DNA of 64,000 nucleotides from an uncultured Candidatus Saccharibacteria bacterium (GTDB taxonomy: Bacteria; Patescibacteriota; Minisyncoccia; Phycocordibacterales; JACOZG01), in contig CAZYXJ010000001.1 of assembly GCA_964651115.1 (NCBI GenBank), positions 106,509-170,508 of the forward strand, read 5' to 3'. Positions 10,563-40,959 of the stretch are shown here, in pieces. The notes beneath the pieces are model-generated. The model had not been told where the DNA came from. It searched no databases and worked only from the letters and a program-made list of their open reading frames with translations. The position numbers and the translations under genes were made by a program. The stretch's first letter is position 1, and every line of letters starts with the position of its first letter.

Positions 10563-10598
10563 AAAACGAAAAAGGCGCCCGGATTTCTCCAGGCGCCC
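10561..10598 (-). terminator. Rho-independent terminator between the hypothetical gene and proS
   Basis: A GGCGCC...GGCGCC hairpin at 10574-10597, followed on the minus strand by a T-rich run (tttttcgtttttt). Confidence 0.5.
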
Positions 10599-10616
10599 GA
10601 CCCCCCCCTAGCATCT

Positions 10617-11024: not shown

Positions 11025-11052
11025 GGCAGAACCCCTTTCTTTAATTAGATAA

Positions 11053-11075
11053 TGATCAACACCGAGTGTTGATCA
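11053..11075. repeat. REP-like palindrome TGATCAACAC-CGA-GTGTTGATCA (copy 1)
   Basis: Perfect 10-bp inverted repeat with a 3-nt spacer in an intergenic region. It is identical to the copy at 28586-28608 and closely related to the copies flanking the Y1 transposase gene. Confidence 0.7.
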
Positions 11076-11146
11076 GGAAAAGAAATCCAACGACATCCAA
11101 CACCACAATACATCAATATAAAATTTTGTCAATAGAGACAGTGGCC

Positions 11147-12801: not shown

Positions 12802-12834
12802 AGCCGTATCGTACCACAGGTGAAAAGCTCTCGC

Positions 12835-13440: not shown

Positions 13441-13442
13441 GC

Positions 13443-16907: not shown

Positions 16908-17749
16908 TTTCGTCGCCACTGCCAAATTAGACCAATAATTATTCCCAGGGCTCCGACAAACCACCAAATCGACGGGCGACGGTGAGACCAAAAAATCGTC
17001 CGCCGATCCACTTCATTATTATACCCCCGATTAAGTTCGAGCGTGACCCAATAATAACCGGCTGGCCAATCGTCGACGGCAACGTCAAGCCAACGCTCGG
17101 ATTGAGGCAAAACAAACCATGGCTCAATAGCCCGGCTGGCAAATTTTTCGCCCCACCAATGACGCAAGGTTAACCCGCCGTAAGGATTAAGCTTGAGACT
17201 GCCACGATTAGCATAAATAAGTCGGAGGTGATCATCACCCACTGGTCCGAAATCGAGCAACTCTCCCCGCTCTTCGCCTCGACCGCTAATCCGCGCAAAA
17301 ACCAACGCTCCAATCTCGGTGGTTAACTTAACCGTAGAAGACGCGCCACTACCAAGACTAAACAAAATTGTCCCATAAGCTTCGGCCACTGGCGAAGAGG
17401 AAGCTAGGGAAAAATAAATCGGGACGGACTGCGACTGACCGGGCGCCATCCGATAACTGGCCGCCAGCGAAGACTCCTCCACGATCGACGATAACGCGTA
17501 AGAACTTGTTGAGGTCTCAGACAGTAGCTGGTAAGCCAGCGCTGGGGAATCGGCGGGAGCCACATCCACCACTCGCGGACTAACCGTAATCGTCTGATCA
17601 GAATAATTTTTGAGAGTAAAAATCTGCAGCACCGGCTGGCCGGTCATCAAATCCAACTCCACTCGCGCCGGCGACAAACCCACCTTCGTCTCGGCAAACG
17701 AAGTCAAAGGCCAAACCGCTAAACTGATTAAAAATAGCCACCACTTCAT
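16904..17749 (-). CDS. Hypothetical surface protein with C-terminal TM anchor
   Basis: 281 aa with a signal peptide and a C-terminal WWFVGALGIIIGLIWQWRRK anchor. The topology resembles the DUF916-type cell-surface proteins of WxL clusters; this is inference only. Confidence 0.4.
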   Translation of the reverse strand: MKWWLFLISLAVWPLTSFAETKVGLSPARVELDLMTGQPVLQIFTLKNYSDQTITVSPRVVDVAPADSPALAYQLLSETSTSSYALSSIVEESSLAASYRMAPGQSQSVPIYFSLASSSPVAEAYGTILFSLGSGASSTVKLTTEIGALVFARISGRGEERGELLDFGPVGDDHLRLIYANRGSLKLNPYGGLTLRHWWGEKFASRAIEPWFVLPQSERWLDVAVDDWPAGYYWVTLELNRGYNNEVDRRTIFWSHRRPSIWWFVGALGIIIGLIWQWRRK

Positions 17750-18777
17750 TAACGTCGAACGGGGGTAATAAGAAATAAATAACGATCAGCCGTTGGCCGG
17801 CTAAAAATTGGGGTAATCACTCCGCTCGTTCCCGTTTGATCAACCTCCAGGCGGATTTGATCAGAGAAGGTGCTCTGAATACGGGCCAAAATAGCCGCAT
17901 CCGTTTCTAAACTGCCAGACGAAGGCGCCAAAACCACACCCGTGGACGGCGAACGTCCAGCTGACGAACCGCCGCTAGCTTGTTTGGCCAAAACTTGCAA
18001 TTGGGCCGAAATCTGATCGGTAATATAGCGTTCGATCTCGGCCGTCGTCGTAGCGGCAAAAACTCCGCCACCCGCCAAATGATAACTACTTGGGCTGGCC
18101 ACCCCCTCCACGCCCAAAAATTTTCGCCAATTAGCGGCCACTCGCAGACGAATCAAGCGCCAACGCTCAGGCAAAGTCGACCAAAACGACTGAGCTTGAT
18201 CCAACTCCTCGACCGCACCGCTCACCACCGTTTCAGTCGCCGTCGCCGCCACCGATCCCACCGCTCCCGCGGCCGCCACCATCCCGGAAGAAAGTGGCAC
18301 CTCCGGCCAATCAATCGACCAAGCCGTCAGAATGGCCAAGCGCTGTTCGATCTTCGGCCACCAAGCGTAAGTCAGCGGCCAAGCCAAAGAGGTGCCGGAA
18401 CCAACCAGCATCAACAGAGCCACGGCCACTAAGGCTCGATACATTTTTAAATTATTATTTCTTTCTCGAGATTGTTGGCGCGCGCGAGAAATTTCGTCCT
18501 TAACCTCACCCACTCGCGCGCGCAATAATTGGCGACTAGCCGGATCAGCCAGTCGAGCGAGCGCGCCTTCGGCAATAAACCAGTCACGGCCGACGCGGCG
18601 ACACTCCAGTTGGCCTCGTTCACACATAAAAATTAGATCGTCAGCACTCCAAGACGAACGAGACTGCGCTTCTTCCAAAGAAACGTACGTAATCACGCTC
18701 TCTAGTATACCATAATCAAAAATGCTAAGGTTTAATCCTATGCACATCGTGAGCGTCATTCCTTTGGCGCGGGGCAT
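17749..18777 (-). CDS. Hypothetical protein with N-terminal excisionase/MerR-like HTH and one TM
   Basis: 342 aa. Residues ~30-75 look like a helix-turn-helix, followed by a TM and an Ala/Ser-rich extracytoplasmic part. The start codon is uncertain. Confidence 0.35.
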   Translation of the reverse strand: MPRAKGMTLTMCIGLNLSIFDYGILESVITYVSLEEAQSRSSWSADDLIFMCERGQLECRRVGRDWFIAEGALARLADPASRQLLRARVGEVKDEISRARQQSRERNNNLKMYRALVAVALLMLVGSGTSLAWPLTYAWWPKIEQRLAILTAWSIDWPEVPLSSGMVAAAGAVGSVAATATETVVSGAVEELDQAQSFWSTLPERWRLIRLRVAANWRKFLGVEGVASPSSYHLAGGGVFAATTTAEIERYITDQISAQLQVLAKQASGGSSAGRSPSTGVVLAPSSGSLETDAAILARIQSTFSDQIRLEVDQTGTSGVITPIFSRPTADRYLFLITPVRR

Positions 18778-20626
18778 CTTCCACGATGATCTGACCTACT
18801 TCTCGGCCAAACCGCTGGCCCTCGGAGCAGTGGTAACGGTGCCCGTCCGCAAAAAATCAATCCCCGCTGTCGTGGTGGCCTGTAAACCAGCCCAAGCCGA
18901 AAAAACGGCCCTGCGGCGGGCTTCCTATGCCTTAAAAAAAGTTGGCCGCCTCCAAACGGTCGGACTAGTCCGGCCAGGGTTTATTAGCGCCGCGGAAAAA
19001 ATCGCCGAATATGCCGCGGCGCCACTTGGCGGCATCCTGCCCGCCCTCATCTCTCAATCTCTAGTTGCCAATCTGAGCGCCCTCGAGCCAGCCGCTCCCG
19101 GCAACGAACAGGCGTCCACCGGTCTGCGACCCGATCTACAGGCCCTCCAAAATCAAGATGACGAACGCTGGTCGACTTATAAAAGCATTGTGCGCGAAGA
19201 ATTCGCCCGCACTCAATCCGTCCTCTTAATTGTCCCCACCCATCTCGACGCTCTGCGCGTCGCCGAAACCTTAAGCCGAGGCATTACCGATTTCACCTTC
19301 ATTCTCCACGGAAAATTAAGCAAAAAATCGCTCGTCGAATCATGGAATGGCGCGCTTAAAGAAACTCGTCCGGTGCTCATCATTACCACCCCCGCCTTTG
19401 CGGGTCTTCCCCGTCACGATCTTAAAACTTTTATCATTGAACGAGAAAACTCGCCCAGCTACAAAATGCTCGCGCGACCGTTTGTCGACTGGCGGCGATT
19501 TTTAGAACAACTCGCGGCGACCACCGGCGCCCGCGTCCTCTATGGCGACAGCGCCCTGAGAGTCGAAACTCTCTGGCGCCTCGAACGAGGCGAGCTCATG
19601 CCCGCCGAAAGCGTTAAACAACGCCTAGTCACCACGGCGGAAAATTTCTTGATCACTTCGAAAAGCGGCGAACCACTAGCGCCAGAAACCTTAGAGTTGA
19701 TTCGCGCCGGCCTGGCCGCTTCGGAGCATCTATTTATTCTGGCCGGCCGGCGCGGCCTGGCTCCCCTGGTGGTTTGCGACGACTGCGGTGAACCAGTCCT
19801 CTGCGCGCGTTGCCAAGGACCGGTCGCTCTCCACGAACGTCGAGCGGCCCCAGAGCAGGATTCGCGTTACTTCCTCTGCCATCGCTGTGGTCAAGAAAGA
19901 TCGGCTAAAGAAAAATGCCAAACTTGCGAGAGTTGGCGTTTACGCGAACTAGGAATTGGCATTAATCGAATTAGTCAACGATTGCAGGAGGCGTTCCCCG
20001 AAGCCCACATCGTCACCGTCGAAAGCGACACGCAAAACACTCCCAAGCGCACTCGCGATCAAATGAGAAACTTTAGCCAAGCCGCTAGTGGCATCTTAGT
20101 CGGCACGGAACTGGCTCTCCATTATTTGCTTACCCCGATTGATACGGCGATTATCGTCGCCGCCGACTCACTTTTAGCCCTCCCTGATTTTCGCATCCAT
20201 GAACGACTCTACTCTCTCACCGCTCGCGTTCGCTCCCTGGCCCGAAAAAACTTCGCCATCCAAACCCGTTACCCCGAAGAACCAGTCTTTAATTACGCCC
20301 TCACCGGCAACACCATCGAATTTTATCGCCACGAATTGGCCGATCGAGAATCATTTGATTATCCGCCCTTTAAAACGCTGATTAAAATCACACGCGAGGG
20401 CTCTCGCGCCGTCGTTAGAGAAGATATGAAACGGTTAGCCGCTCACCTCTCGACTTTCCAGCCCCAAATTTATCCCTCCTTCCAAGAACCGGGCTCTGAC
20501 AACTACCGCTTGCAAGCTCTAATCCGTCTGCCTCCCGAGCGCTGGCCTAACCCCACCCTCGTTTCGTTCTTGAAATCCTTGCCGCCATCGTTTATTGTCA
20601 ATGTTGACCCGGCCGATATCCTTTAA
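18722..20626 (+). CDS. priA: Primosomal protein N-prime (PriA)-like, helicase motifs I/II degenerate
   Basis: 634 aa with a PriA-like N-terminal 3-prime-DNA-binding region and a Cys-rich zinc module (CDDCGEPVLCARCQG...CHRCGQ...CQTCES). No GxGKT Walker A is present, and the DEEH box is replaced by EREN in the conserved FIIERENSPSYK context. Confidence 0.6.
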   Translation: MLRFNPMHIVSVIPLARGIFHDDLTYFSAKPLALGAVVTVPVRKKSIPAVVVACKPAQAEKTALRRASYALKKVGRLQTVGLVRPGFISAAEKIAEYAAAPLGGILPALISQSLVANLSALEPAAPGNEQASTGLRPDLQALQNQDDERWSTYKSIVREEFARTQSVLLIVPTHLDALRVAETLSRGITDFTFILHGKLSKKSLVESWNGALKETRPVLIITTPAFAGLPRHDLKTFIIERENSPSYKMLARPFVDWRRFLEQLAATTGARVLYGDSALRVETLWRLERGELMPAESVKQRLVTTAENFLITSKSGEPLAPETLELIRAGLAASEHLFILAGRRGLAPLVVCDDCGEPVLCARCQGPVALHERRAAPEQDSRYFLCHRCGQERSAKEKCQTCESWRLRELGIGINRISQRLQEAFPEAHIVTVESDTQNTPKRTRDQMRNFSQAASGILVGTELALHYLLTPIDTAIIVAADSLLALPDFRIHERLYSLTARVRSLARKNFAIQTRYPEEPVFNYALTGNTIEFYRHELADRESFDYPPFKTLIKITREGSRAVVREDMKRLAAHLSTFQPQIYPSFQEPGSDNYRLQALIRLPPERWPNPTLVSFLKSLPPSFIVNVDPADIL

Positions 20627-20634
20627 TCCAAGCC

Positions 20635-21183
20635 ATGCGCCAACATCAACCCCACTCACCCCATCAAGCCCCGCCCACCATTGTCCAAAATGGGGCAGAA
20701 GTTTTGCGCCAAGTAGCCGAGACCGTGAACGAGGCCGAATTTAATACTCCCGCCCTGCAAGAATTGGTGACCAGGATGGAAGAAGCACTAGCCAGCTGTG
20801 ACGATGGGGTTGCCATTGCCGCGCCGCAGATTGGTGTCGCTAAAAGAATTTTCGTGGTGGCTCCTCAGGCTTTTGATGATGGCCCCGAAACTACCGCCAA
20901 CCATCGCGTCTTCATCAACCCGATCATTACTAAAAAATCTAAACGAACGAGCGTGGTTGATGAGGGTTGTCTCTCGGTGCGCTGGCTTTACGGCAAAGTT
21001 CGACGCTCCACCAAAGCGACCGTCGAGGCCTACGACCTTAAGGGGAAAAAGTTTACTCATCACGGCACCGGTCTCCTGGCGCAAATTTTCCAGCACGAAA
21101 TTGATCACCTCAACGGCGTTCTATTTATCGATCAAGCTAGCCAACTAGAAGAAATTAAACCCAGCGACAATGATGCCGCCTAA
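20635..21183 (+). CDS. def: Peptide deformylase
   Basis: 182 aa with the motifs GVAIAAPQIG, EGCLS and HEIDHL. Confidence 0.9.
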   Translation: MRQHQPHSPHQAPPTIVQNGAEVLRQVAETVNEAEFNTPALQELVTRMEEALASCDDGVAIAAPQIGVAKRIFVVAPQAFDDGPETTANHRVFINPIITKKSKRTSVVDEGCLSVRWLYGKVRRSTKATVEAYDLKGKKFTHHGTGLLAQIFQHEIDHLNGVLFIDQASQLEEIKPSDNDAA

Positions 21184-21985
21184 ATTCGTTTTCTGGGGCA
21201 GTGACGATTTTTCGATTGGGGTCTTAAATGGCTTAGCCGCCGTCGGCCAGCAACCCGCGTTAATCGTCGGCACTCCACCCCGTATCAAGCGCGGCCAACC
21301 GCAACCAGCGGCCACGGCTCAGTGGGCAGAAAGTCACCAGATCCCCTTCACTATCGACCCCGCTACGATCCCGCCCCAAGCCTATGATTTTTTTATCGTC
21401 GCCTCATATGGCCAGATCATTTCCCCCGAATTACTGCGCCTGGCCAAACTGGGGACAATTAACGTCCACCCCTCACTCTTGCCGAAATACCGCGGGGCCA
21501 CGCCTCTCCAGAGCGCCATCCTAAACGGCGAAAGCGAAACTGGCGTTACCCTGATTGAACTGGACGAACAGCTTGATCATGGACCAATTTTAGCGCAGGC
21601 CACCCAGCCCCTCGGCCACTTAAATTTTAGCGAGTTAAGAGATCTACTGGCCCGCCGCGGAGCCGAATTGCTGGCCGAAATTCTGCCCGCTTACTTGGCG
21701 CAAACGCTTAAACCACAAACCCAAAATCACGACCAAGCTACGTTTACGCGTAAATTTACCAAAGCTGATGCCGAACTAAAATCTACTGACACTCCGATAA
21801 TTAAATTTAGAAAAGTCCTCGCCCTCAATCCCGAACCGGGCACTTGGCTAGTTGACGAACGCGGACAACGATTAAAAATTAAAACTGCCCGCCTCGAGGA
21901 CGGACAGTTTATTCCTGAAAAAGTGGTTCCTGAAGGTAGGCGTGAAATGACTTGGTCAGATTATCGCCGTGGCCAGCAACCCTAG
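21170..21985 (+). CDS. fmt: Methionyl-tRNA formyltransferase
   Basis: 271 aa. It has a formyl-transferase N-domain with the HPSLLPKYRG motif and overlaps def in the classic def-fmt arrangement. Confidence 0.88.
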   Translation: MMPPKFVFWGSDDFSIGVLNGLAAVGQQPALIVGTPPRIKRGQPQPAATAQWAESHQIPFTIDPATIPPQAYDFFIVASYGQIISPELLRLAKLGTINVHPSLLPKYRGATPLQSAILNGESETGVTLIELDEQLDHGPILAQATQPLGHLNFSELRDLLARRGAELLAEILPAYLAQTLKPQTQNHDQATFTRKFTKADAELKSTDTPIIKFRKVLALNPEPGTWLVDERGQRLKIKTARLEDGQFIPEKVVPEGRREMTWSDYRRGQQP

Positions 21986-22620
21986 CGAATTTCCACCTTC
22001 TCTACCACGACCGGCTTAAGAGGATGATCACTGCTACTTGTCGAAACATTTTCGATCGCACTCACGACGTCCAAACCGGCAATCACTTTACCGAAGGGTG
22101 TATGCCAACCGCCACCGGGCTTATTTAGCCAATCAACTCGGGGCGCCGTCACGATAAAAAATTGCGAACCATTAGTCCCACGACCACCGCGGAGACCGGC
22201 ATTAGCCATCGCCACGACGCCGCGTTCCAAGATCACATCATTCACCTCATCATCAAACACGTAACCCGGACCGCCCGTCCCATGAATGGCCAAGTTATCT
22301 GGCTCCGACTTAGTTAGCGGATCACCGCCCTGAATCATAAAGCCCTTGATTACTCGATGAAATTGGGTCCCGTCGTAAAAACCGCTTTGGGCCAATTTTA
22401 CAAAATTCTGGACTGTCACTGGCGCTTTAGTCGCATATAACTCTACCTCGATTACTCCGGCCGAAGTAGTTAGGACCGCCACTGGGCTAGTCAGAGAGGT
22501 TCGTTCGCCTGAAATCATTTTTTTACTAGTAATGCCGGCCTCCGGCGCAGTCCAAGCAAGCAAGCCAACTGCGGCCACCGCCAACACCACGATTAAGATT
22601 AAAAGTTTAAAATTTTTCAT
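21982..22620 (-). CDS. Cyclophilin-type peptidyl-prolyl cis-trans isomerase, membrane/secreted
   Basis: 212 aa with an N-terminal TM/signal. Cyclophilin motifs FHRVIKGFMIQGGD and GSQFFI are present. Confidence 0.85.
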   Translation of the reverse strand: MKNFKLLILIVVLAVAAVGLLAWTAPEAGITSKKMISGERTSLTSPVAVLTTSAGVIEVELYATKAPVTVQNFVKLAQSGFYDGTQFHRVIKGFMIQGGDPLTKSEPDNLAIHGTGGPGYVFDDEVNDVILERGVVAMANAGLRGGRGTNGSQFFIVTAPRVDWLNKPGGGWHTPFGKVIAGLDVVSAIENVSTSSSDHPLKPVVVEKVEIR

Positions 22621-22629
22621 AAACCCAAA

Positions 22630-23004
22630 CTAGCTACGCCAAGGATTAAAGCGTCGCAACATCTCTTTAACCCGTCGCCCGCCGCGGCGCAATAAAGTGT
22701 TCCGCTTCTCGGCATTCGTTTTAATCACTCGAGACATTTCGTCCTTAACCAGATCAATCGCCGCGTACAGATCGGCGGCATTTTCCACCGCGTACAACTG
22801 TTTACCATTGAACAATAAGCGGATCTCGGCGCGGTAAACATCGCCCTGACGATGATGCTCCGTATCCCGACCAATCTCCACATTGACCAGCAACTCATCA
22901 TTGCCGGCTGGCAACAATCGGCCCAACATCCCAACCTTCTCTTCCGCAAACTCCCGAATCGCGGGCGTCAACTCAATACTCGTTGCTTTAATATTGATCT
23001 TCAT
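22630..23004 (-). CDS. hpf: Ribosome hibernation promoting factor (HPF/RaiA family)
   Basis: 124 aa with the sigma-54 modulation protein/S30EA fold signature (MKINIKATSIELTPAIREFAEEK...). Confidence 0.8.
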   Translation of the reverse strand: MKINIKATSIELTPAIREFAEEKVGMLGRLLPAGNDELLVNVEIGRDTEHHRQGDVYRAEIRLLFNGKQLYAVENAADLYAAIDLVKDEMSRVIKTNAEKRNTLLRRGGRRVKEMLRRFNPWRS

Positions 23005-23011
23005 GCCCCCA

Positions 23012-24433
23012 TTATAACACCTCCGCGAGCATCATATTAGTGTCGACAGATTTGCCGAAAGGCATGCCCGCCGCTACCACCACCCGCTCCCCCTTTTTGC
23101 CCAGTTTATGCTCTAGGGCAAATTCCCGAACCATGGCCAAAACCTCGGCGGTGGTCTTAAACTTCTTAACCAAAGTCGGATAACAACCGTAACTCAAGGC
23201 CAACTGATTAACCGTCGCGCGATTGGGCGATAAGCAAATAATCCCCTGATTGGGTCGATAGCGAGAAATCATCCGCGCCGTAAAACCAGAATCAGTCAAG
23301 GCGACGATAAACTTGGCTCCCAACTGAGTCGAAGTCTCAACCGCGGCATTGCCCACGGCATCAGCCACGCTATTGTCGTGCAAAAAGTCACGATCGCGAC
23401 GTTGATACGAGCGATCGCGCTCCACCCGAAGCGCCACCCGCGTCATCACCCGAACCGCCTCCACCGGGTGCTCGCCCAAAGTCGTCTCTTCCGATAGCAT
23501 GACCGCGTCCGTACCATCTAAAATAGCATTAGCGACGTCCGAAACTTCGGCCCGGGTCGGCACCGGGGACTTAATCATCGACTCAAGCATTTGCGTCGCC
23601 GTAATCACTGGCTTGCCGGCGCGATTACATTTCTTAATAATCATCTTCTGGACCATCGGCACGTCTTCGGCCGGAATCTCCACCGCCAAATCTCCCCGCG
23701 CTACCATAATCCCATCCGACAATTCCAAGATCGCGTCAAAGTTTTCGACCGCTTCTTGGGTCTCAATTTTAGAAATAATTTTTGCTTCGGATTTACCCTT
23801 GTTCAACAATTCGCGCAGTTCGATCACGTCTTCAGGTCGCCGCACGAAGGAAAAAGCGATAAAATCAACTTTGTTCTTTAAGCCAAAAGCCAAATCTTTT
23901 TTATCCTTCTCCGTCAGCGAGCTCACCTTCAGATAAGCCCCGGGCAAATTAACGCCGCGACGGCCCTTGGTCTCCCCACCAACCACAATCTGGCAAATGA
24001 CGTCTGTCCCCTTAATCTCGACCACTTCCAAACGTTTCTTACCATCATCCACCATTACCACGTTACCGGGCTTAAGCTCTTCGTGTAGAGTCGGGTAGTT
24101 AATCGAGACTCGCTCCTCGGTACCCACAATTTTTTCCGGCGTTAAAGTAATGCGTTTGCCTGGCACCAAAGTCACCCGCTCTTGATAAAAATCACCGATT
24201 CGAAACTTGGGACCAGACAGATCCTGCAACAAAGCGACGGGCGTATTTAATTTTTTAGAGACAGCGCGAGTAATATCCACCTTGGGTTGATGCTCCGCGA
24301 AATCGCCGTGAGAAAAGTTCATGCGCACCACATTCATCCCCGAACGAACCAGTTCCGTTAACATCTTTTCGTTGGCCGTGACCGGTCCAATCGTGGCTAC
24401 AATTTTGGTTTTCTTAGAAATATGCATAAACAA
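23012..24433 (-). CDS. pyk: Pyruvate kinase
   Basis: 473 aa with TKIVATIGP and MVARGDLAVE motifs and a C-terminal regulatory domain. Confidence 0.9.
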   Translation of the reverse strand: MFMHISKKTKIVATIGPVTANEKMLTELVRSGMNVVRMNFSHGDFAEHQPKVDITRAVSKKLNTPVALLQDLSGPKFRIGDFYQERVTLVPGKRITLTPEKIVGTEERVSINYPTLHEELKPGNVVMVDDGKKRLEVVEIKGTDVICQIVVGGETKGRRGVNLPGAYLKVSSLTEKDKKDLAFGLKNKVDFIAFSFVRRPEDVIELRELLNKGKSEAKIISKIETQEAVENFDAILELSDGIMVARGDLAVEIPAEDVPMVQKMIIKKCNRAGKPVITATQMLESMIKSPVPTRAEVSDVANAILDGTDAVMLSEETTLGEHPVEAVRVMTRVALRVERDRSYQRRDRDFLHDNSVADAVGNAAVETSTQLGAKFIVALTDSGFTARMISRYRPNQGIICLSPNRATVNQLALSYGCYPTLVKKFKTTAEVLAMVREFALEHKLGKKGERVVVAAGMPFGKSVDTNMMLAEVL

Positions 24434-24451
24434 GACTTTAAATAATGAATT

Positions 24452-24976
24452 TTAACTATAATAAACGAAGAGCATGATTGCAACCACCAAACCAACTTGC
24501 AGTAACGGCCCAACCAAACCGCGCGGATTAAGTTTGTACTTGGTGTGAATCCAGAGATGAAAAAGTTGTAATCGCGCCAGCCACCGCCAGCGCAATTTGA
24601 AATAAACAAATTGCAAAAAATCCGGCGCCATCGCGCCAGCGGCCCCCGCCAGCGCGCCCAACGCCGCATTCTCTGATGACCACCAAATCACTAAGCCAGC
24701 CAATCCTAAGCCGAGCAAACCGTCGCTAACAATTTTTAATAAATCCCAAAAGAAATCTCGCCCCCAGCGCAAATCAGTGGCCAAAGGATTGTTTTGATCT
24801 TCCACCGCCGAACGCAGGGGGTAATCCCAGTGTGGCAAAGCATCAAGCGCGAAGTGACTGGCAAAGCCGAGCAGAAACGCGGCCGCCGGTTGCGCCGGGA
24901 CGAGGAGTGAGAGCGCGGCGCCGGCGGCCGCATGCGTGGCTAAAGTCATCGGCTCTACTATAACACAAGAAAACAC
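24452..24976 (-). CDS. Hypothetical polytopic membrane protein (possibly membrane-bound metal-dependent hydrolase family)
   Basis: 174 aa with several TM helices and conserved His/Asp residues (HWDYP). Weak call. Confidence 0.35.
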   Translation of the reverse strand: MFSCVIVEPMTLATHAAAGAALSLLVPAQPAAAFLLGFASHFALDALPHWDYPLRSAVEDQNNPLATDLRWGRDFFWDLLKIVSDGLLGLGLAGLVIWWSSENAALGALAGAAGAMAPDFLQFVYFKLRWRWLARLQLFHLWIHTKYKLNPRGLVGPLLQVGLVVAIMLFVYYS

Positions 24977-25016
24977 CCCGTTGGCCAGTGGCCAACGGGG
25001 TGTCAGAAAAGAACAA

Positions 25017-26216
25017 TTAAGGAGGTAAGGTTGGGTCCGCGAGGCAGGGGCCCGGCAAGCCGCTCCGGCTCAGGCAGGACTGAAGCAAGGTCCAATCAGC
25101 CTGGTTAGTAACGCCGTCGCGAGTTAGATCCCAAATTCGGCACTCGGGGACCAGCGGCGGTTGATTCCACTCCCCCAACCCCAAGCAAACCTGAAACGAC
25201 GAGACGTCTTCAGCATCGACGTCGCCATCGTAATCATGATCGCCATAAGGCGTACAGGGAACGGTGCTGACGAACTGATTGCGGGGGCAGGCGTCATGGC
25301 AGTCAAAAACGCCATCCCCGTCCCTATCGTTATCGGCCACCCCGCAACCGCACGGTCCCGGAGCAATCTTCTTGGGATCGTTAGGGCAACCATCCTGGCA
25401 ATCCAGAATCAAATCGCCATCGGCATCGAGCAGGCCGCCCGACCAATCGCAAGTGACGCAAGGCGGAAAACCAATTTCGCCCGGCACCAAAAGTGACTGC
25501 TGGCTCGGCGGGTCAACATTTTCGTTACTGCTGCCCCGCTCCTTCCAGCTCTTCTCACAGTCGACCCAAAGCTTGGCAACCGATTCGGTCGGCTGCACGT
25601 TGACCATGAAGGCCGTCGCCGTGATGTTATTGATAAACACCAACCGATGATTGGGCGGACCATTAGCCGATCCGAAATAAATGTCGGCCGACGGTTTGCT
25701 GGGATCGCGAATTACCCGGACGACAAGGTAAACAGGCCTCAGAATCGTATCGTCGCGATATGGCTTATCGCCCTTACGCGAGCCGAGCCGAAAGGTCATG
25801 ACTCCATTGTCATCCGCTTTCATTTTCCCCTTCATGATCCTCTTCTTGATGGGGAAGGGCTGGCCATTAACAAGACCGTAGCAGGTGTCATTGTTGGCCA
25901 TATTGCCCAAGAAAGCGTCCTCGGGGAAAGCCGCATTGGAACTGTAGACGAAATATTCCGCCTCCCAGCTCTGCTTGTAACGCTCCCCAAACTGATCCTT
26001 GATCGTTATGCCGATCTCGTACTCAAAACCGACCAAGCGAGCACCGCCGGGATTGCGCGGGTCCGCTTCATAGAGGCAATTCCCCCAGCGCGCGGAATCG
26101 AGTTTGATTTCGCGTGCCGTTTTGACGGGTGCCGGCGGCGGATTGCCCGCCGGCACCGTGTCTTGGCAACCAACTCCTGAAATGACCAGTCCCAGGAGCA
26201 GTAAAAATCTTTTCAT
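25017..26216 (-). CDS. Lipoprotein with thrombospondin type-3-like Ca-binding repeats and dockerin-like C-terminus
   Basis: 399 aa with a lipobox-like N-terminus (LLGLVISGVGCQ). Asp-rich DxDxDGxxDCxDxCP repeats are present (DADGDLILDCQDGCPNDP, DNDRDGDGVFDCHDACP), plus two dockerin-like segments (DYDGDVDAEDV..., DLTRDGVTNQADWTLL). Confidence 0.5.
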   Translation of the reverse strand: MKRFLLLLGLVISGVGCQDTVPAGNPPPAPVKTAREIKLDSARWGNCLYEADPRNPGGARLVGFEYEIGITIKDQFGERYKQSWEAEYFVYSSNAAFPEDAFLGNMANNDTCYGLVNGQPFPIKKRIMKGKMKADDNGVMTFRLGSRKGDKPYRDDTILRPVYLVVRVIRDPSKPSADIYFGSANGPPNHRLVFINNITATAFMVNVQPTESVAKLWVDCEKSWKERGSSNENVDPPSQQSLLVPGEIGFPPCVTCDWSGGLLDADGDLILDCQDGCPNDPKKIAPGPCGCGVADNDRDGDGVFDCHDACPRNQFVSTVPCTPYGDHDYDGDVDAEDVSSFQVCLGLGEWNQPPLVPECRIWDLTRDGVTNQADWTLLQSCLSRSGLPGPCLADPTLPP

Positions 26217-26234
26217 GATTTCGTCTCCTTGGAC

Positions 26235-26888
26235 TTAGCGAATCTCAGGAACCCGGTACAGATACCCGACGGTTGGCAGCGGCAACTCACTCGGCACTCC
26301 GCCCGTGACCGTCACCCGCACGCGCAGGCGAAAACCTCGCGCGCCCGCCACATAATCGGCCGGCGTCTGGCACTCGGCCAGCTTAGAATGCTGGAGTAAG
26401 TGCTCGATCGGCCCGCTGACTGACGCAAGCGAACCATCCGCCCCCTCGGCAACGAACTCGTCTCGGCCAAAGGTGACGGAAGCGTTCGGATTGGACGCCT
26501 TGTAAGCGGCGGCCGACGCCTCATGAGCCGCGTTGACGAGCGGCGTCCAAGCCGTCCCCTTGAGATACCCCGGGTAAGCCGAGAGGGTAAAGCCCTCCGG
26601 CACCCAAAGCACCAGCTTCTGCGCCGGCCCCCGTCCCCAGACGCCACACCAACCATTCGGCATCAGCCGGGAGTCGTGATGGCGCAGGAGTAAGATGGGC
26701 GGGCTCTCGAGCACGACGGTGCGCGAGGCCGGCTGACCCGGGCTCTCCACATCGAGCACTGGCGTCACCCGCACCGCCACCCCTTCGGTCAGCACCGCCG
26801 GCCGGGCTTGAGACGGCGAGGTACAAGATGAGATCCCCGCCACTCCTCCGAGGACGAAAAAGATCGCCCCCCAAATGATCTTCCGCAT
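26235..26888 (-). CDS. Hypothetical secreted protein
   Basis: 217 aa with a signal peptide and no recognisable motifs. Antisense ORFs inside it are probably GC-driven artefacts. Confidence 0.4.
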   Translation of the reverse strand: MRKIIWGAIFFVLGGVAGISSCTSPSQARPAVLTEGVAVRVTPVLDVESPGQPASRTVVLESPPILLLRHHDSRLMPNGWCGVWGRGPAQKLVLWVPEGFTLSAYPGYLKGTAWTPLVNAAHEASAAAYKASNPNASVTFGRDEFVAEGADGSLASVSGPIEHLLQHSKLAECQTPADYVAGARGFRLRVRVTVTGGVPSELPLPTVGYLYRVPEIR

Positions 26889-26961
26889 CGCAAACCTCCC
26901 ATGTCAGAGATCAAAGATTGATCAGGAACATCCTGAATCTGTTTTTACACTACAACGGTTT

Positions 26962-26989
26962 TTGTAGCTAGTCAATATGTGTTAAACTA
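26962..26989 (+). promoter_or_regulatory. Candidate sigma70-like promoter upstream of eno
   Basis: TTGTAG, then 16 nt, then TAAACT, about 25 nt upstream of the eno ATG in an AT-rich intergenic region. Weak. Confidence 0.3.
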
Positions 26990-27002
26990 AAGCCATAATT
27001 AA

Positions 27003-28319
<1,317 letters not shown>

Positions 28320-28332: not shown

Positions 28333-28373
28333 AAAACAAAATGATCAACACCTAGTGTTGATCATTTTGTTTT
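28333..28373. repeat. Extended REP-like palindrome (copy 2), also a likely eno terminator
   Basis: aaaacaaaatgatcaacac-cta-gtgttgatcattttgtttt forms a ~19-bp stem with the TGATCAACAC/GTGTTGATCA core. It lies 14 nt after the eno stop and 22 nt before the transposase ATG, and is followed by a T-rich run. Confidence 0.7.
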
Positions 28374-28394
28374 GCTTTATGATAAGATAAAAGC

Positions 28395-29075
28395 ATGAGA
28401 GCGCTTAACTTGGCGGGCGGCGAATATTATCATCTTTTAAATCGCGGAATGGCAAAGCGTCCTATCTTCCATGACAACGATGATTATCTGCGTTTTCTCT
28501 TTCTGATCACCCATCTGCAATCCGGAAAATCCTTCCTTAATATGTCCCGCGACATTAACCTGTTTAAAAAAACTTTTTCTCGACCTGATCAACACCGAGT
28601 GTTGATCAATCAAGAATACGCCAAAGCGGCCTCCCACCAACCACTAGTAAAGCTCCTGGCCTTTTGTCTAATGCCCAATCACTTTCATCTTTTAGTTTTA
28701 GCGATTCAAGATAATGGCATCGCTCGATATTTACAAAGAATCCTAAATGCCTACGCCAAGTATTATAATTTGAAATACCAACAAACCGGCCACCTGTTCC
28801 AGGGCCCATATCGAGCCGTTCACGTTTCTGACAACGAGCAACTACTCTACACCTCGGCTTACGTGCACAAAAATTGTTGCGAACTATTAGCCTGGCAAGA
28901 AAACTTTGCAGAATATCCTTGGTCTAGCTTGCAAGATTATTGCGTTTTTAATCGCTGGAGCACCCTACTCGATCCCCAGATCATTATTGATCAATTCGAT
29001 AACCCGACTGAATATTTGTTGTGGGTGAAAAACAACCCCGCTAAAACCGAAAATTTCGGGGTTGATTCTGATTAA
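28395..29075 (+). CDS. Y1 (HuH) transposase of the IS200-like/REP-associated tyrosine transposase family
   Basis: 226 aa with YHLLNRG...PIFHDNDDY, the HuH motif MPNHFHLL, GHLFQGPYRAV, catalytic-Tyr region LLYTSAYVHKN and YPWSSL. These match the COG1943-type Y1 transposases. It is flanked and interrupted by cognate palindromes. Confidence 0.8.
   Translation: MRALNLAGGEYYHLLNRGMAKRPIFHDNDDYLRFLFLITHLQSGKSFLNMSRDINLFKKTFSRPDQHRVLINQEYAKAASHQPLVKLLAFCLMPNHFHLLVLAIQDNGIARYLQRILNAYAKYYNLKYQQTGHLFQGPYRAVHVSDNEQLLYTSAYVHKNCCELLAWQENFAEYPWSSLQDYCVFNRWSTLLDPQIIIDQFDNPTEYLLWVKNNPAKTENFGVDSD
28586..28608. repeat. REP-like palindrome TGATCAACAC-CGA-GTGTTGATCA (copy 3, inside the transposase ORF)
   Basis: Identical 23-mer to copy 1 at 11053. 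It encodes RPDQHRVLINQ within a region that looks like an insertion relative to family members. Confidence 0.65.
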
Positions 29076-29091
29076 CACCCGGTGTTGATCA
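29069..29091. repeat. REP-like palindrome TGATTAACAC-CCG-GTGTTGATCA (copy 4, at transposase stop)
   Basis: Inverted repeat with one mismatch, overlapping the TAA stop of the transposase gene. Confidence 0.6.
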
Positions 29092-29132: not shown

Positions 29133-30671
29133 ATGGAGCACATGAATCAAACCAAAAAACCGGTTGCTTTAATCATTCTCGACGGCTGGGGTTATCGCGA
29201 AGAAACTAAGGATAACGCCATCGCCGCAGCCCAAAAGCCGAACTTTGACCGCCTCTGGCAAACCTACCCTCACACTTTACTTAAAGCGAGCGGCAACGCC
29301 GTTGGCCTACCCGAAGGCCAAATGGGCAATTCCGAAGTTGGCCACATGACCATTGGCGCGGGCACGCCCATCGATACCGATCTCGTCCGGATCGACAAAG
29401 CAATCTCTGACGGCAGCTTTGAACAAAATCCTGCCTTCTTGAACTTATTTGACCACGTGAAAAAAAATAATTCGACGCTTCACGTCCAAGGTCTTGTCTC
29501 CCCCGGCGGCGTCCACAGTCATCAGAAACACCTCTTTGCCTTCTTGCGGCTAGCCAAAAAAATGAACGTGCCCCGAGTCGCTATCCACGTCTTTACTGAT
29601 GGCCGCGACACCGCACCCCAAAGCGCTTCGGCCTACCTCAAAGAACTAGAAACTTTAATCGCGGAACTTGGGCCAAACTTTTTCATCGCCACCATCTCGG
29701 GCCGCTATTTCGCGATGGACCGCGACAACAATTGGGACCGCTTAGCCAAAGTGGAGCAGGCGCTCTTTAAATGCGAGGGCAATGTTTGCCAAATTAACCC
29801 CTCACAATATCTCGAGGAGCAATATCGCGCTGGCAAAAATGATGAGTTGCTCGAGCCAACCGTCTGCGCTACGCCCGCGGGGCAAGGTTGTGCCATCAAG
29901 CCGGGCGACGCCGTCTTCTTCTTCAACTTCCGCGCCGATCGCGCTCGCATGCTCTCAGAGAAAATGCTCAATCTCCCCCAGGACCAACAAATTTTATTTA
30001 TCACTCTCACCGAATATTGCGTCGACTTTAAATGCGTGATGGCCTTCCCTCCCAAGCCTGTCGCCACCACGCTCGCGGCCGAGATCGCTCGCGCCGGCCT
30101 AACTCAAGCCCACATTGCCGAAACCGAAAAGTTTGCCCACGCGACCTACTTCTTAAATGGCGGCGTGGAAACGGCCTACCCCGGCGAGACCGACATTATG
30201 CTCCCCAGCCACAAAGACGTGGCCACTCACGATCAAGCCCCCAAGATGCAGGCGGCCGGAATTGCCGCCAAAGCCGTCGAACAGATTGCCGCCGGAGTCG
30301 ATTTTATTTTCATTAACTTTGCTAATGCTGATATGGTCGGACACACCGCCAACGTCCCCGCCATTATCACTTCCGTAGAAGCTGCCGACCGCGCGCTAGG
30401 CGAAGTTGTCGCCGCCCTCGAGAAAGTTGGTGGGACGGCCATCATCACCGCCGATCACGGCAATGCCGAGGTAAATATTGACCCGGTGACGGGCGCCAAA
30501 CACACCGCTCACACCACTAATCCCGTGCCCTGCATTGTGACTGATCACGGGGCCACCCTCCGCGCCGATGATCCGGCCGCGCCGCTCGGTCTAGCCGACC
30601 TCGCGCCCACCGTTCTTAAAATTTTAGATTTGCCAATCCCCCCAGCGATGACGGGACAGCCGCTAATTTAA
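29133..30671 (+). CDS. gpmI: 2,3-bisphosphoglycerate-independent phosphoglycerate mutase
   Basis: 512 aa with ALIILDGWGYRE, the SGNAVGLPEGQMGNSEVGHMTIGAG metal-site motifs and the iPGM C-terminal domain. Confidence 0.9.
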   Translation: MEHMNQTKKPVALIILDGWGYREETKDNAIAAAQKPNFDRLWQTYPHTLLKASGNAVGLPEGQMGNSEVGHMTIGAGTPIDTDLVRIDKAISDGSFEQNPAFLNLFDHVKKNNSTLHVQGLVSPGGVHSHQKHLFAFLRLAKKMNVPRVAIHVFTDGRDTAPQSASAYLKELETLIAELGPNFFIATISGRYFAMDRDNNWDRLAKVEQALFKCEGNVCQINPSQYLEEQYRAGKNDELLEPTVCATPAGQGCAIKPGDAVFFFNFRADRARMLSEKMLNLPQDQQILFITLTEYCVDFKCVMAFPPKPVATTLAAEIARAGLTQAHIAETEKFAHATYFLNGGVETAYPGETDIMLPSHKDVATHDQAPKMQAAGIAAKAVEQIAAGVDFIFINFANADMVGHTANVPAIITSVEAADRALGEVVAALEKVGGTAIITADHGNAEVNIDPVTGAKHTAHTTNPVPCIVTDHGATLRADDPAAPLGLADLAPTVLKILDLPIPPAMTGQPLI

Positions 30672-31441
30672 ACCAACCACCAGCCAGCTAGAAGCAGCGC
30701 CAAGATTAAACGATACCAACCAAAGTTTTCAAAGTTGTGCTGCTCCACATAACGGAGCAGCCACTTAATAACCAAACCAGCCACCACAAAAGCCACCACA
30801 AAGCCGACGGCCAGCGCTCGCCACTCTTCGGGCGCAAAGTCCACCGGCACTTTTAACAAATCTAAGCCCGTGGCCGCGGCCATCGTCGGTAGAGCTAAAA
30901 GAAAAGAAAACTCGACGATGGCCGGACGCGATAATCCCAGCACCAGACCACCCACCACTGTGGCCGCGGCGCGCGACACCCCTGGGACAATCGCCACCGA
31001 TTGCGCCAGGCCAATCAGCACGGCTTGGCGGTAAGAGAGCGTCGCCAGTTCCTGAGTTGGGCTTAAGCGCCGGCGATACCAACGCTCAAACATCACCAGG
31101 GCCACACCACCAACTCCCAAGGCCACAATCACCGTCGTCAGATCTTGGAACAAAAATTGTTTGATCAGAGAATAAAAAACCAAACCAATAATCGCCGTCG
31201 GCACAAAAGCCACCGCCACCTTACCTAACAGAGCGCGCGAACGCCACCAACGCCCTCGATACCACCAAACCACTGCCAAGATTGCGCCCAACTGAATGGC
31301 GACGTAAAAACTCGACAGAAAATCACCTGGCGCCAACCCCAAAATTTCGCCGGCAACAATTAAATGTCCCGTCGAAGAGATGGGCAAAAATTCGGTTAGC
31401 CCCTCGACCACTCCCAAGATCAACGCCTGGACGAGAGTCAT
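30668..31441 (-). CDS. uppP: Undecaprenyl-diphosphatase UppP (BacA)
   Basis: 257 aa with the signature EGLTEFLPISSTGHL. Its stop overlaps the gpmI stop (convergent). Confidence 0.88.
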   Translation of the reverse strand: MTLVQALILGVVEGLTEFLPISSTGHLIVAGEILGLAPGDFLSSFYVAIQLGAILAVVWWYRGRWWRSRALLGKVAVAFVPTAIIGLVFYSLIKQFLFQDLTTVIVALGVGGVALVMFERWYRRRLSPTQELATLSYRQAVLIGLAQSVAIVPGVSRAAATVVGGLVLGLSRPAIVEFSFLLALPTMAAATGLDLLKVPVDFAPEEWRALAVGFVVAFVVAGLVIKWLLRYVEQHNFENFGWYRLILALLLAGWWLV

Positions 31442-31446
31442 AAGAC

Positions 31447-31728
31447 TTAGGCCTGATCTTCTTTATAGTGACGATCCAACCAGCGAGCTAGATAGACGCC
31501 AAAAAACACAACAATCGCCGTGATTAAGGCCGCATACCAAAACTTCGCCATAACGCCATCTCGACCACCGAGCGGCAACCAATAATCAATCAAGGCTCTA
31601 ATGGCCTCGTTCCAAGCCAGACCAGCCACCAAACCCAGACCGCCAGTTATATAGCCCAGCGTTCGCAAGCGCAACTCTCGGCGCAAGGTCTGACTCTCTT
31701 GTTTTATTTTTTCGAGCGGAAACATCAT
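31447..31728 (-). CDS. Hypothetical small membrane protein
   Basis: 93 aa with two TM helices. Confidence 0.35.
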   Translation of the reverse strand: MMFPLEKIKQESQTLRRELRLRTLGYITGGLGLVAGLAWNEAIRALIDYWLPLGGRDGVMAKFWYAALITAIVVFFGVYLARWLDRHYKEDQA

Positions 31729-34486: not shown

Positions 34487-34520
34487 AAAAAAACCAGCTT
34501 CTAGCCGAAGCTGGTTTTTT
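34487..34520. terminator. Bidirectional rho-independent terminator between convergent KGG genes
   Basis: An A7 run, then stem accagcttc / gaagctggt with loop tagcc, then a T6 run. It lies symmetrically between the two stops. Confidence 0.75.
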
Positions 34521-39260: not shown

Positions 39261-39333
39261 TCCGCGATAGCTCAGTTGGTAGAGCGCCTCGCTGTTAACG
39301 AGGATGTCCCAGGTTCGAGCCCTGGTCGCGGAG
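39261..39333 (+). tRNA. tRNA-Asn (anticodon GTT)
   Basis: A manual cloverleaf fits: acceptor tccgcga/tcgcgga, D-arm gctc-agttggt-agagc, anticodon arm cctcg-ctGTTaa-cgagg, variable loop atgtc, T-arm ccagg-ttcgagc-cctgg, discriminator G. There is a TATAAT 19 nt upstream. Confidence 0.85.
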
Positions 39334-40959
39334 CCTGACTGACAAAAGTGGCACATGATGCCACTTTTGTCGTATGTGGCCTGGCTTTTTAGAGGTTCGA
39401 GCGTGCTCTATTTCCTGCATAATAGCTTCTCGTGCTTTTATGAGGCTCAAAAAGAAAGAACTGTAAGAAAGCTGGATCTTTTTGTCTGAAATGGTGAGGT
39501 TCGAGCCAAGGCATGCGAGTATCGCTCTTTTGGTCTTTTCATCGCCATTTGCGTACCAAAGGTGGGCGTAGCAGGCAAAGTCAAAGGTTTGCTCTGAAAG
39601 TTCAGCCCATTGTTCTACAGCCTTATTCTTGATCTTCAACTCGTCCTCAAGAAGGCCCTTCTTTCTGAGTAGTTCAGACTTTAAGGACTGGTATTCCTGT
39701 TCGCCGATAACGGTTCGATTCTTGTTTGATGGTGCAGTAAAGTTAAGGGTCAAAGATTGCAGCTGCTGCGTTACTTCTTCACATTCCTTGTGCTTGGTCC
39801 TTATTGCGATTGAATCACTCTCAGCCTCATTCTTGCGGACCTCATGGACATGGCGAACCGCCCAGTCACGATACTCCTCTGAAATTCTTATATCTTTAAG
39901 GATCGCCCCGATCTGTAAGTGTAGTAGTTTTACTTCCACATGCTTTTCAGTACAGCCAGCGTCATATCTCTTTTTGGTGCAGTTGTAGTAAACGTAATGA
40001 TGGACGTTACCGTTCTTGCAACGCTTTACTTTGGCTTGGGCAGTGATGCTGCAACCACAGGTGGCACATTTCATAAGACCAGTAAAAGCAAACATCCTCT
40101 CTTCGTGTCGTGGGCGCGGTTGGTTGGTCCTACCCATAACCTTTTGTACCTGATCAAATTCTTCTTTGGTTACCATCGGCGCGTGCGCTCCTTTATTCCA
40201 ATTACCACTGTGGAGCGGAAACTCAAACCAGCCATAATAAAATGGGTTACCGAGGACTGCATAAATTGCTGATCGAGAAAGATGTTCACCGCCGATATTT
40301 CTACGTGGGACCGTTCGGAGATTCAACTGTTTTCTTGAAATATTCCAAATCTGGGCCATTGAATAATTGCCGGTAAGCGCAAGATCAAAGAGTCTTCGGA
40401 CCAACGGGAATCTATCAGGATCTTTTTCTAAGGTCTTGTAACCCTTTTGTTTATTGGGTGTGTTGAGATATCCAATCGGCGCACCGCTTGGCATCCAACC
40501 ATCTCTCACTTTCTTTTGCAGACCTCGCTTTACATTCACTGATAGGTCTCGAATAAACTGATTGGCCATGCCAAGTTCTACTTGCATCATGAGCACGTTG
40601 TCTGTTGGGTAATAGGTTCGACCGAAGGTAACGATTTGAGATACGGCACTCTGCTGCAACATCCAACTTATCTGGCCACCATCGACAGGATTACGGGCTA
40701 GGCGGTCCAGTTTCCAGCATAGGATGCCATTGGCTTCGCCTTTATAGATCCTCTCAAGCATTGAGTTGAATACCTTCCTACCTGGTTTCTTGGCTGATTG
40801 TGATTCTTCAAGGATATCCAGGATGTGTAAACCTTGATCCTTTGCAATCTTCAAAAGCTCGTCTTTCTGGGCATCTATGGACGCTGCCTGGCGATCTTCT
40901 GCCTCGCTGGATTTACGAGCATAGAGGAAGTATTTAATTGGTTGGTTTGTCTGGTTCAT
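39295..40959 (-). CDS. Large serine recombinase (integrase/resolvase family)
   Basis: 554 aa. The N-terminal catalytic domain has YARKSSEAEDRQAASIDAQ (nucleophile Ser region) and a recombinase domain, followed by a zinc ribbon (CATCGC...CTKKR) and a coiled-coil. The C-terminal ~25 codons read through the hairpin and tRNA 3-prime end on the opposite strand. Confidence 0.8.
   Translation of the reverse strand: MNQTNQPIKYFLYARKSSEAEDRQAASIDAQKDELLKIAKDQGLHILDILEESQSAKKPGRKVFNSMLERIYKGEANGILCWKLDRLARNPVDGGQISWMLQQSAVSQIVTFGRTYYPTDNVLMMQVELGMANQFIRDLSVNVKRGLQKKVRDGWMPSGAPIGYLNTPNKQKGYKTLEKDPDRFPLVRRLFDLALTGNYSMAQIWNISRKQLNLRTVPRRNIGGEHLSRSAIYAVLGNPFYYGWFEFPLHSGNWNKGAHAPMVTKEEFDQVQKVMGRTNQPRPRHEERMFAFTGLMKCATCGCSITAQAKVKRCKNGNVHHYVYYNCTKKRYDAGCTEKHVEVKLLHLQIGAILKDIRISEEYRDWAVRHVHEVRKNEAESDSIAIRTKHKECEEVTQQLQSLTLNFTAPSNKNRTVIGEQEYQSLKSELLRKKGLLEDELKIKNKAVEQWAELSEQTFDFACYAHLWYANGDEKTKRAILACLGSNLTISDKKIQLSYSSFFLSLIKAREAIMQEIEHARTSKKPGHIRQKWHHVPLLSVRLRDQGSNLGHPR
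39341..39371. other. Perfect 13-bp hairpin immediately 3-prime of tRNA-Asn
   Basis: gacaaaagtggca-catga-tgccacttttgtc. It is a possible tRNA terminator and/or recombination site, and lies inside the 3-prime end of the recombinase reading frame. Confidence 0.6.

Follow-up and report, generated by a model that had tools for sequence, protein, structure and literature searches.

The gene that lies between eno and gpmI in a 64-kb stretch of Patescibacteria DNA (the window, meaning the whole stretch that was analysed) encodes a protein of the HUH/Y1 transposase type and is surrounded by copies of one short palindrome. This raises the question of whether gene and palindromes form a mobile unit and, if so, of which kind. 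The explanation that appears probable is a self-contained unit of ~0.8 kb, similar to a REPtron or TIRtron, in which a class-2 Y1 enzyme is accompanied by three cognate 23-nt hairpins. The unit would have entered this genome recently, and a solo hairpin would have appeared elsewhere since. This explanation draws on the anatomy of the locus, the co-variation of hairpin and gene throughout the family, the fixed site of an internal hairpin, the fold of the enzyme and the absence of the unit from a close relative.

The cognate hairpins and their Y1 enzyme

The palindrome, TGATCAACAC-N3-GTGTTGATCA, is 23 nt long and occurs in four copies in the window, where dinucleotide-preserving shuffles give an expectation of 0.00. 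The copies at 11053-11075, 28342-28364 and 28586-28608 have no mismatch and the copy at 29069-29091 has one, in agreement with the four copies listed by an earlier note on this DNA. Relaxing the search to 3 mismatches yields no extra copies in the window, within which the 9-mer GATCAACAC is confined to these palindromes. The hairpin design is a perfect 10-bp stem starting with TG and a 3-nt loop, and the flanks of the four copies have nothing in common beyond TG...CA. In a contig collection lacking the source genome, GATCAACACNNNGTGTTGATC gave only 19 single chance matches in unrelated genomes (e.g., Pseudomonas and Lacticaseibacillus).

Three of the copies belong to the transposase gene. The upstream hairpin (28333-28373) extends the 23-nt core at 28342-28364 to a perfect 19-bp stem with the loop CTA, flanked by an A-run and a T-run. 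The core lies about 30 nt upstream of the ATG at 28395, and the end of the long stem is 21 nt from this codon; the 19-bp stem of the earlier note is thus retained, while its distance of 22 nt is corrected. Folded as single-stranded DNA, the upstream hairpin reaches -18.8 kcal/mol (z = -9.9). The internal hairpin (28586-28608) is in frame, codes for P64-N72 (PDQHRVLIN) and has the loop CGA, which is the codon of Arg68. The 3′ hairpin (29069-29091, loop CCG) overlaps the stop codon, as had been noted before, and the TAA at 29073-29075 arises from its sole mismatch, a C>T in the left arm. Without this change the frame would continue as ...DSDQHPVLIK, in the same frame and with nearly the same peptide as the PDQHRVLIN of the internal copy. 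The fourth copy is a solo hairpin at 11053-11075, 17 kb from the transposase unit. The identity claimed for this remote copy is borne out, as it matches the internal copy with the loop included.

The link between hairpin and gene becomes visible across the family. A total of 85 homologous loci, with 30-54% identity, were scanned for perfect palindromes. Most loci with both flanks available have a locus-specific perfect palindrome, typically with a 10-bp stem and a 3-nt loop. Its sequence varies between loci, and the copies around one gene agree. The stem begins with TG and ends with CA in 39/93 family copies. Among the homologues, the median distance from the end of the upstream copy's 8-nt-arm core to the ATG is 25 nt, and that between the first base of the stop codon and the start of the downstream copy is 7.5 nt. 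Locus L025 carries TGTCCAACAC-CGA-GTGTTGGACA at -36, +170 and +659 relative to the ATG. Three sites are also occupied in L029 (CGTCAACAC-N3-GTGTTGACG), L048 (TGTTCAAAGT-N3-ACTTTGAACA), L063 (TGAAAGAGGC-TTC-GCCTCTTTCA) and L095 (CCGTGAAGGT-N3-ACCTTCACGG). L101 has four copies of TGACAGGG-N5-CCCTGTCA, and L072 has GTATTGGTTT-ACG-AAACCAATAC at the upstream and internal sites. This comparison of sequences supports the view that the palindrome is the cognate hairpin of the Y1 enzyme, co-varying with the gene over dozens of homologous loci.

Two further observations concern loci with more than one type of palindrome. In L027 two Y1 paralogues lie 8 kb apart, and the second (18338-18985, minus strand) has a different palindrome of its own, TGTCAAAGAC-N3-GTCTTTGACA, at 17497, 18349 and 18996. 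Since each paralogue has its own palindrome, several enzyme/hairpin pairs can coexist in one genome. In L045, a palindrome of the type cognate to L032, TGTTCAACAC-CAG-GTGTTGAACA, is found at about 3707-3729 (relative position +771), ~100 nt past the 3′ hairpin of the locus itself (TGTCAAAAGT...). It may be the footprint of another family member.

The transposase-like gene (28395-29075, plus strand) is intact and encodes 226 aa. Its neighbours are the genes for enolase (27015-28319) and iPGM (ATG at 29133 or 29142, end at 30671). The protein matches Pfam PF01797 Y1_Tnp with 37.8 bits against a gathering cut-off of 23 (E = 2.3e-9) and has the motifs NHFH at residues 95-98, GHLFQGPY, the catalytic-helix Tyr156 in SAYVHKN and a YPWSS tail. 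The HUH/Y1 enzyme placed earlier between eno and gpmI is thereby upheld. No second Pfam domain is present in the protein at E <= 0.1, and hmmsearch over all open reading frames (ORFs) of the window gave this one match and no further Y1 genes. H96, H98 and Y156 are invariant across 117 homologues of 215-240 aa, the consensus of which reads MPNHFH ... GHLFQGPY ... SAYIHRNP ... YPWSS ... NRW ... AK. An AlphaFold2 model built on the 117-sequence alignment has a predicted local distance difference test (pLDDT) of 92 and a predicted template modelling score (pTM) of 0.89. Its best PDB match in Foldseek is 4er8, the E. coli TnpA_REP bound to a hairpin of a repetitive extragenic palindrome (REP), with E = 1e-5, followed by ISDra2 and IS608 TnpA; the Foldseek probability is 1.00 for each of 4er8, 2xo6 and 2vjv. 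A sequence profile search agrees weakly with these matches.

An exact look-up of the protein returned three short Logan contigs with the same eno-Y1-gpmI context, and the nearest database homologue besides itself is 54% identical. In a profile search of 1.84 billion cluster representatives, 1,574 were found at E <= 1e-30. Where homologues are named, they are labelled “transposase” and come from Patescibacteria, Parcubacteria, Paceibacteria or Vogelbacteria.

The class of the enzyme can be read from its motifs. It has been reported that Y-x3-NP characterizes class 2 (RAYT-like) and Y-x3-Q characterizes IS200 (Quentin et al. 2018, PMC6006769). Subclass 2.1, which is TIRYT-like and equals Bertels group 1, is recognized by NH[YF]H, FQ, Y[IV]HxNP and SS in combination with a length of about 238 aa (PMC6006769). 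The family consensus carries the motif set of subclass 2.1 in a comparison of motifs only, made without the authors' subclass hidden Markov models. The class 1 features of IS200/IS605 (Y-x3-Q, D-H-[VI]-H and a ~150-aa core) are absent from the window protein, which has SAYVHKN, NHFH and 226 aa. These motifs support an enzyme of class 2 (RAYT/TIRYT-like) rather than a canonical IS200 TnpA. The earlier description of the protein as RAYT-like therefore stands in part: the class-2 motif, the 4er8 fold and the lack of an adjacent tnpB (the neighbours being eno and gpmI) agree with it, but the score against the NCBIfam equivalog NF047646 (REP_Tyr_transpos) is 36.4 bits against a cut-off of 80. In addition, the window copies have no GT[AG]G tetranucleotide at the hairpin foot, which is conserved in REPs.

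Entry of the unit and dispersal of its hairpins

A close relative, GCA_964444555.1, was reached via enolase homologues. Its enolase is 98% identical in amino acids, and over 11.3 kb the nucleotide sequences are 88.3% identical by blastn. In the blastn alignment of locus L111, positions 1-11266 correspond to 17016-28280 of the window and positions 11308-13607 to 29142-31441. The eno stop codon of L111 is followed by “AT” (2 nt) and then by the gpmI ATG, with no Y1 gene. In L112, the enolase of which is 86% identical, the eno-gpmI spacer is 42 nt long and again has no Y1 gene. This is the comparison of eno-gpmI spacing in relatives that the earlier note called for. As eno adjoins gpmI in both relatives, the segment 28320-29141 (plus strand, 822 nt with approximate ends) is an insertion in the lineage of the window. 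The palindrome has no copy, even at 5 mismatches, in 68 kb of the relatives (L111-L114). No eno or gpmI was found beside homologues in other loci, and the insertion site is therefore lineage-specific.

At 0.426, the GC content of the unit is below that of the flanking genes (0.543 and 0.553), and its GC at third codon positions (GC3) is 0.458 against 0.62-0.63. Low GC and GC3 fit a foreign origin. The GC content of the window is about 53%, and the “high-GC” of the earlier note is accurate in relative terms only. Duplication of the target site, or of the 3′ end of eno at the right edge of the insert, was considered and rejected as evidence, the local alignments not being significant (p about 0.07-0.19 by shuffling). 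Taken at the level of sequence, the comparison with relatives supports a recent gain of the unit in this Patescibacteria genome.

The solo copy at 11053 is located between rseP (11147-12253, minus strand) and an ORF of 135 aa (10617-11024, minus strand), 28 nt upstream of the ATG of the latter. L114, from the same relative as L111 and with an RseP that is 92% identical, is without this copy, and the pairwise alignment has a 21-nt gap exactly at the palindrome. The segment from rseP to proS (10608-11107 of the window) diverges from the relative. The 135-aa ORF has an N-terminal hydrophobic stretch, and L114 has only a 33-aa ORF there. The solo hairpin is at the edge of this divergent segment.

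Solo copies were also sought around the homologues, counting cognate palindromes with 0-1 mismatches more than 200 nt from the gene. Nine were found in 348 kb, where at most 0.3 would be expected. Dispersal is thus real but sparse, at roughly one copy per 40-60 kb. The proposal of an active or recently active dispersal system is sustained insofar as the unit and the 11053 copy are absent from the relative of ~88% nucleotide identity; it must be tempered, however, by the single solo copy in 63 kb of window. The earlier note had proposed to test for pairs resembling bacterial interspersed mosaic elements (BIMEs); no such pairs, nor pairs like REPINs, occur within the window. In L072, two direct copies of the cognate palindrome (ATGTATTGGTTTACGAAACCAATAC) stand 42 nt apart at 17630-17697, in intergenic DNA 7.6 kb from the Y1 gene and beside a separate terminator-like hairpin.

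In other lineages the gene keeps its place. P0044 and P0057, which are 73.5% identical, are both located between pth and an S1-domain gene, and P0005 and P0085, at 51% identity, are both near rpoBC-dnaG and a DsbA gene. From these gene orders, the unit would seem to move rarely and to be capable of vertical inheritance for long periods, as RAYTs are.

IS608/ISDra2 TnpA and E. coli TnpA_REP serve as models for a proposed mechanism, including the assumed catalysis on hairpins, cleavage sites and mode of homogenisation. The enzyme would bind the hairpin extruded from single-stranded DNA. It would then cut at or near the hairpin foot through a 5′-phosphotyrosine intermediate, and the strands would be rejoined. 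The whole hairpin-bounded unit may be moved occasionally in this way, with single hairpins copied or replaced more often. Enzyme activity, or gene conversion among copies, might keep the three copies of one locus identical, with the sequence drifting from lineage to lineage. The internal copy would persist because the encoded loop tolerates any peptide.

Several observations weigh against a mobile unit that disperses its hairpins. The insert, as approximately delimited, extends past the outer hairpins by 22 nt on the left and 50 nt on the right. The synteny of the gene in other lineages means that mobility of the whole unit is rare. Around the solo copy the spacer is otherwise divergent from L114 and does not separate insertion from deletion cleanly; since spacer and downstream ORF both diverge, the polarity at 11053 is less clean than at eno-gpmI. 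Dispersal, as counted in the window and in the 348 kb around homologues, is far below that of classical REP systems. Finally, copies within one locus are not uniform in loop orientation (e.g., CGA versus TCG), which is not predicted by a strand-specific mechanism of the IS200 type.

The unit might instead be a plain insertion sequence (IS) of the IS200/IS605 family, with the outer hairpins as its subterminal left and right ends, no dispersal of the REP type, and remote and internal copies that are incidental. This is considered unlikely. The fold is related to that of ISDra2 and IS608 TnpA, but the Y motif is of class 2 (Y-x3-N, with YIHRNP in the family) and not Y-x3-Q (PMC6006769), and the 226 aa with a conserved C-terminal extension contrast with ~150 aa for IS200 TnpA. 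The position of the hairpins just inside both ends, with extra flanking bases, is that seen in IS608; these hairpins are perfect palindromes with flipping loops, however, whereas the end hairpins of IS200 are imperfect and strand-specific. An IS would readily account for the presence or absence of the whole unit between close relatives and for its foreign GC, yet less so for a single copy in 64 kb with no tnpB, or for orthologues that are syntenic at 73% identity. The small number of solo copies also agrees with an IS, but exact 23-nt solo copies are found in several genomes.

The hairpin inside the reading frame

The copy inside the ORF was treated by the earlier note as incidental, a view that has to be abandoned given that it is a family-wide feature at a fixed position. 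For each locus the palindrome was defined from the flanks only and the best match within the ORF was taken, a copy being called when at most 3 of 16 stem positions mismatched; 52 loci were scored. A cognate copy centred 18-34 codons before the HUH motif is present in 21/52 loci. In the control, palindromes of other loci match at the internal site in 1.3% of 2,312 pairs. The distribution of mismatches at this site is bimodal (0-3 versus 5-8), and 20 of the 21 positive loci have an internal copy with 0-1 mismatches. In the window, the internal copy precedes the HUH motif by 27 codons. Among the negative loci are some with decayed relics at each of the three sites, such as L027 (-31, +172 and +663) and L023 (-41, +181 and +689). 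There is also a second internal site, after the Tyr helix, at which 4 more distant loci have a cognate copy.

In the AlphaFold2 model, residues 62-72 form a surface loop between the helices 50-61 and 73-81, with a confidence of 69-76, the lowest of the folded part. Both helices are extra to the Pfam core, the match to which begins at residue 74. The peptides encoded at the internal site are unrelated between loci (DQHRVLI, VQSSTLN, ERGFASF, IGLRNQY, YEVEPRK, LQGRTLE and others), and the constraint at this site is therefore on the DNA and not on the protein. The 3-nt loop is exactly one codon in 15/19 loci. From the RFLF motif to HUH the median distance is 56 aa both with and without an internal copy. 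As the interval is unchanged in length, the palindrome occupies or overwrites an existing loop, and a simple added insertion was rejected. The model suggests a permissive site, i.e., a low-confidence surface loop that would tolerate any peptide. The internal copy is patchy on a tree made by the unweighted pair group method with arithmetic mean (UPGMA), and in one clade 8/8 loci carry it, each different in sequence.

It has to be asked whether the internal hairpin is a working part and not a tolerated passenger. It could be a docking site in cis, a self-limiting switch in which an outer and an inner cut inactivate the gene, or a throttle on expression through mRNA or single-stranded DNA. Such a role is judged improbable. 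Despite the great diversity of the family the position is fixed, with the loop in phase as one codon in most loci, but the use of a second site after the Tyr helix in 4 loci fits “any permissive loop”. The near-perfect match of the copy in 20/21 loci despite full replacement of its sequence between lineages, its overwriting in place at an unchanged interval length, and the clade in which all 8 loci carry it would be expected of a functional element; on the other hand, about 60% of loci with flanking hairpins have no internal copy or only decayed relics of one. Moreover, the in-frame REPs of RAYT subclass 2.4 and the palindromes found in frame in Rickettsia genes are considered neutral (PMC6006769, PMC3733652).

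It is very improbable that the palindromes are host regulatory elements unrelated to Y1 catalysis (terminators, mRNA-stabilising hairpins or the operator of a dimeric DNA-binding protein): the upstream copy with its 19-bp stem and T-run is a good look-alike of an intrinsic terminator, the solo and upstream copies both stand ~20-30 nt before a start codon and TTGATC in the right arm resembles a -35 element, but the relative without the gene has no palindrome, and the palindrome changes by locus yet always matches around one Y1 gene, which ties it to the gene product and not to a host factor. A terminator scan lists the upstream hairpin as terminator-like after eno, whereas no T-run follows the internal, 3′ and solo copies. 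The promoter scan reported no sigma-70 promoter using TTGATC of the hairpin as its -35 element, and a candidate extended -10, TGnTAAGAT, was picked by eye. Rfam and PHROGs reported nothing for the region.

A wider proposal, offered tentatively and thought unlikely, is that a large undescribed clade of Patescibacteria Y1 enzymes (~1,600 clusters at 50% identity) shares the three-hairpin design, with a functional internal hairpin that is continually overwritten to match the outer two. The 23-nt hairpin would then be an exchangeable mobile cassette. If this were true, the internal hairpin would be a cis-recruitment site, a self-limiting switch or a means of expression control.

Related systems and neighbouring elements

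The REPtron is an E. coli-type RAYT (TnpA_REP, 4er8) flanked by REPs (Nunvar 2010; Ton-Hoang 2012; Quentin et al. 2018, PMC6006769). The window unit resembles it in being a single Y1/HUH gene bracketed by cognate palindromes, with further copies in intergenic DNA, and in having the class-2 Y-x3-N(P) motif and 4er8 as its best fold match. It differs in its hairpins, which are short and perfect (10-bp/3-nt), have TG...CA ends and no GT[AG]G foot, and in its tiny copy number. The protein is longer, with a C-terminal WSS...NRW...AK extension, and falls below the NCBIfam cut-off. Unlike a REPtron, the whole unit seems to have been gained recently in this lineage and not inherited vertically.

TIRtrons are flanked by repeats from small families, which may be self-complementary and may run into the gene at its 5′ or 3′ end (Di Nocera et al. 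2013, PMC3733652; PMC6006769). The enzyme shares NH[YF]H, FQ, Y[IV]HxNP, the “SS” tail and a length of about 230 aa with the TIRYT/TIRtron subclass 2.1. This subclass has been reported to be without REP-like hairpins, and to have terminal inverted repeats (TIRs) of the GGGGWSAS type and a C-terminal helix-turn-helix (HTH) domain (Bac_DnaA_C, HTH_23 or HTH_28) (PMC6006769). In contrast, the window unit has perfect flanking hairpins, and neither GGGGWSAS-type TIRs nor a C-terminal HTH were found in it; the assignment to 2.1 is by motifs only.

REPs are known in frame inside tnpA_REP in RAYT subclass 2.4, or Bertels group 4 (PMC6006769). As in that subclass, the cognate palindrome of the window lies in the transposase frame, in a peripheral loop, and leaves the frame undisrupted. 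It is unlike subclass 2.4 in its one fixed pre-HUH site, the unchanged length of the interval, the short tagless hairpins (no GTAG foot) and its host among the Patescibacteria. In-frame palindromic elements are also known in Rickettsia genes (PMC3733652). These Rickettsia palindromic elements (RPEs) are likewise palindromic repeats that a functional protein accommodates in frame at its surface, but they measure 100-150 bp, occur in many unrelated genes and have no link to Y1.

With IS200, IS608 and ISDra2 the unit has in common the HUH/Y1 fold, a minimal one-gene organization with a subterminal hairpin at each end, and insertion into a tight intergenic spacer without evident target duplication. 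Members of the IS200 family differ from it by Y-x3-Q and a ~150-aa core; they are present in multiple identical copies, their hairpins are imperfect and strand-specific, and they often have tnpB.

A literature search found no description of this Patescibacteria Y1 clade, of tagless short perfect hairpins on a 2.1-like enzyme (a type reported as REP-less), or of a fixed pre-HUH in-frame site with concerted replacement in place. Work on RAYTs and REPs so far concerns almost wholly Proteobacteria and Cyanobacteria, and the route by which REPs are copied and kept homogeneous is unsettled. The present unit is a minimal and compact case, with one gene and three 23-nt hairpins in tiny genomes that have few other repeats. 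The close relative without gene and hairpins provides natural “before and after” genomes, and in dozens of independent lineages the hairpin sequence is fully replaced yet matched at three fixed sites. The specificity code and homogenisation are therefore testable by comparison and with short oligonucleotides. There is also a consequence for annotation, as the genes are labelled plainly as “transposase” and peptides such as QHRVL and LQGRTL in Patescibacteria proteins are hairpin-encoded.

Other features of the window are separate from the unit. A 93-aa ORF (31447-31728, minus strand) between bacA and a PF1765-like gene is missing from L111, where blastn leaves a gap at 31441-31725 of the window. 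Further long perfect hairpins, with stems of 11-14 bp and sequences unrelated to the 23-mer, are found at 24973-25003, 34488-34520, 39341-39371 and 60383-60410 and are probably terminators. The one at 39341-39371 comes directly after tRNA-Asn, at the boundary of a low-GC island.

This island (39261-~59500) has a GC content of 0.37-0.45 against about 0.53 and starts at the tRNA-Asn gene (39261-39335). Its genes include one for a large serine recombinase (39295-40959, minus strand) and one for an HTH_36 protein, as well as those of a type I restriction-modification system (hsdR 42587-45568, hsdS 46804-48108 and hsdM 49299-51281). A DUF2130 protein, a Fic protein (51290-52432), a DsbD_2/HMA protein and a copper P-type ATPase (54969-57362) are also present. 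The island looks like an integrated element, and L111 too has a serine recombinase at the same tRNA-Asn.

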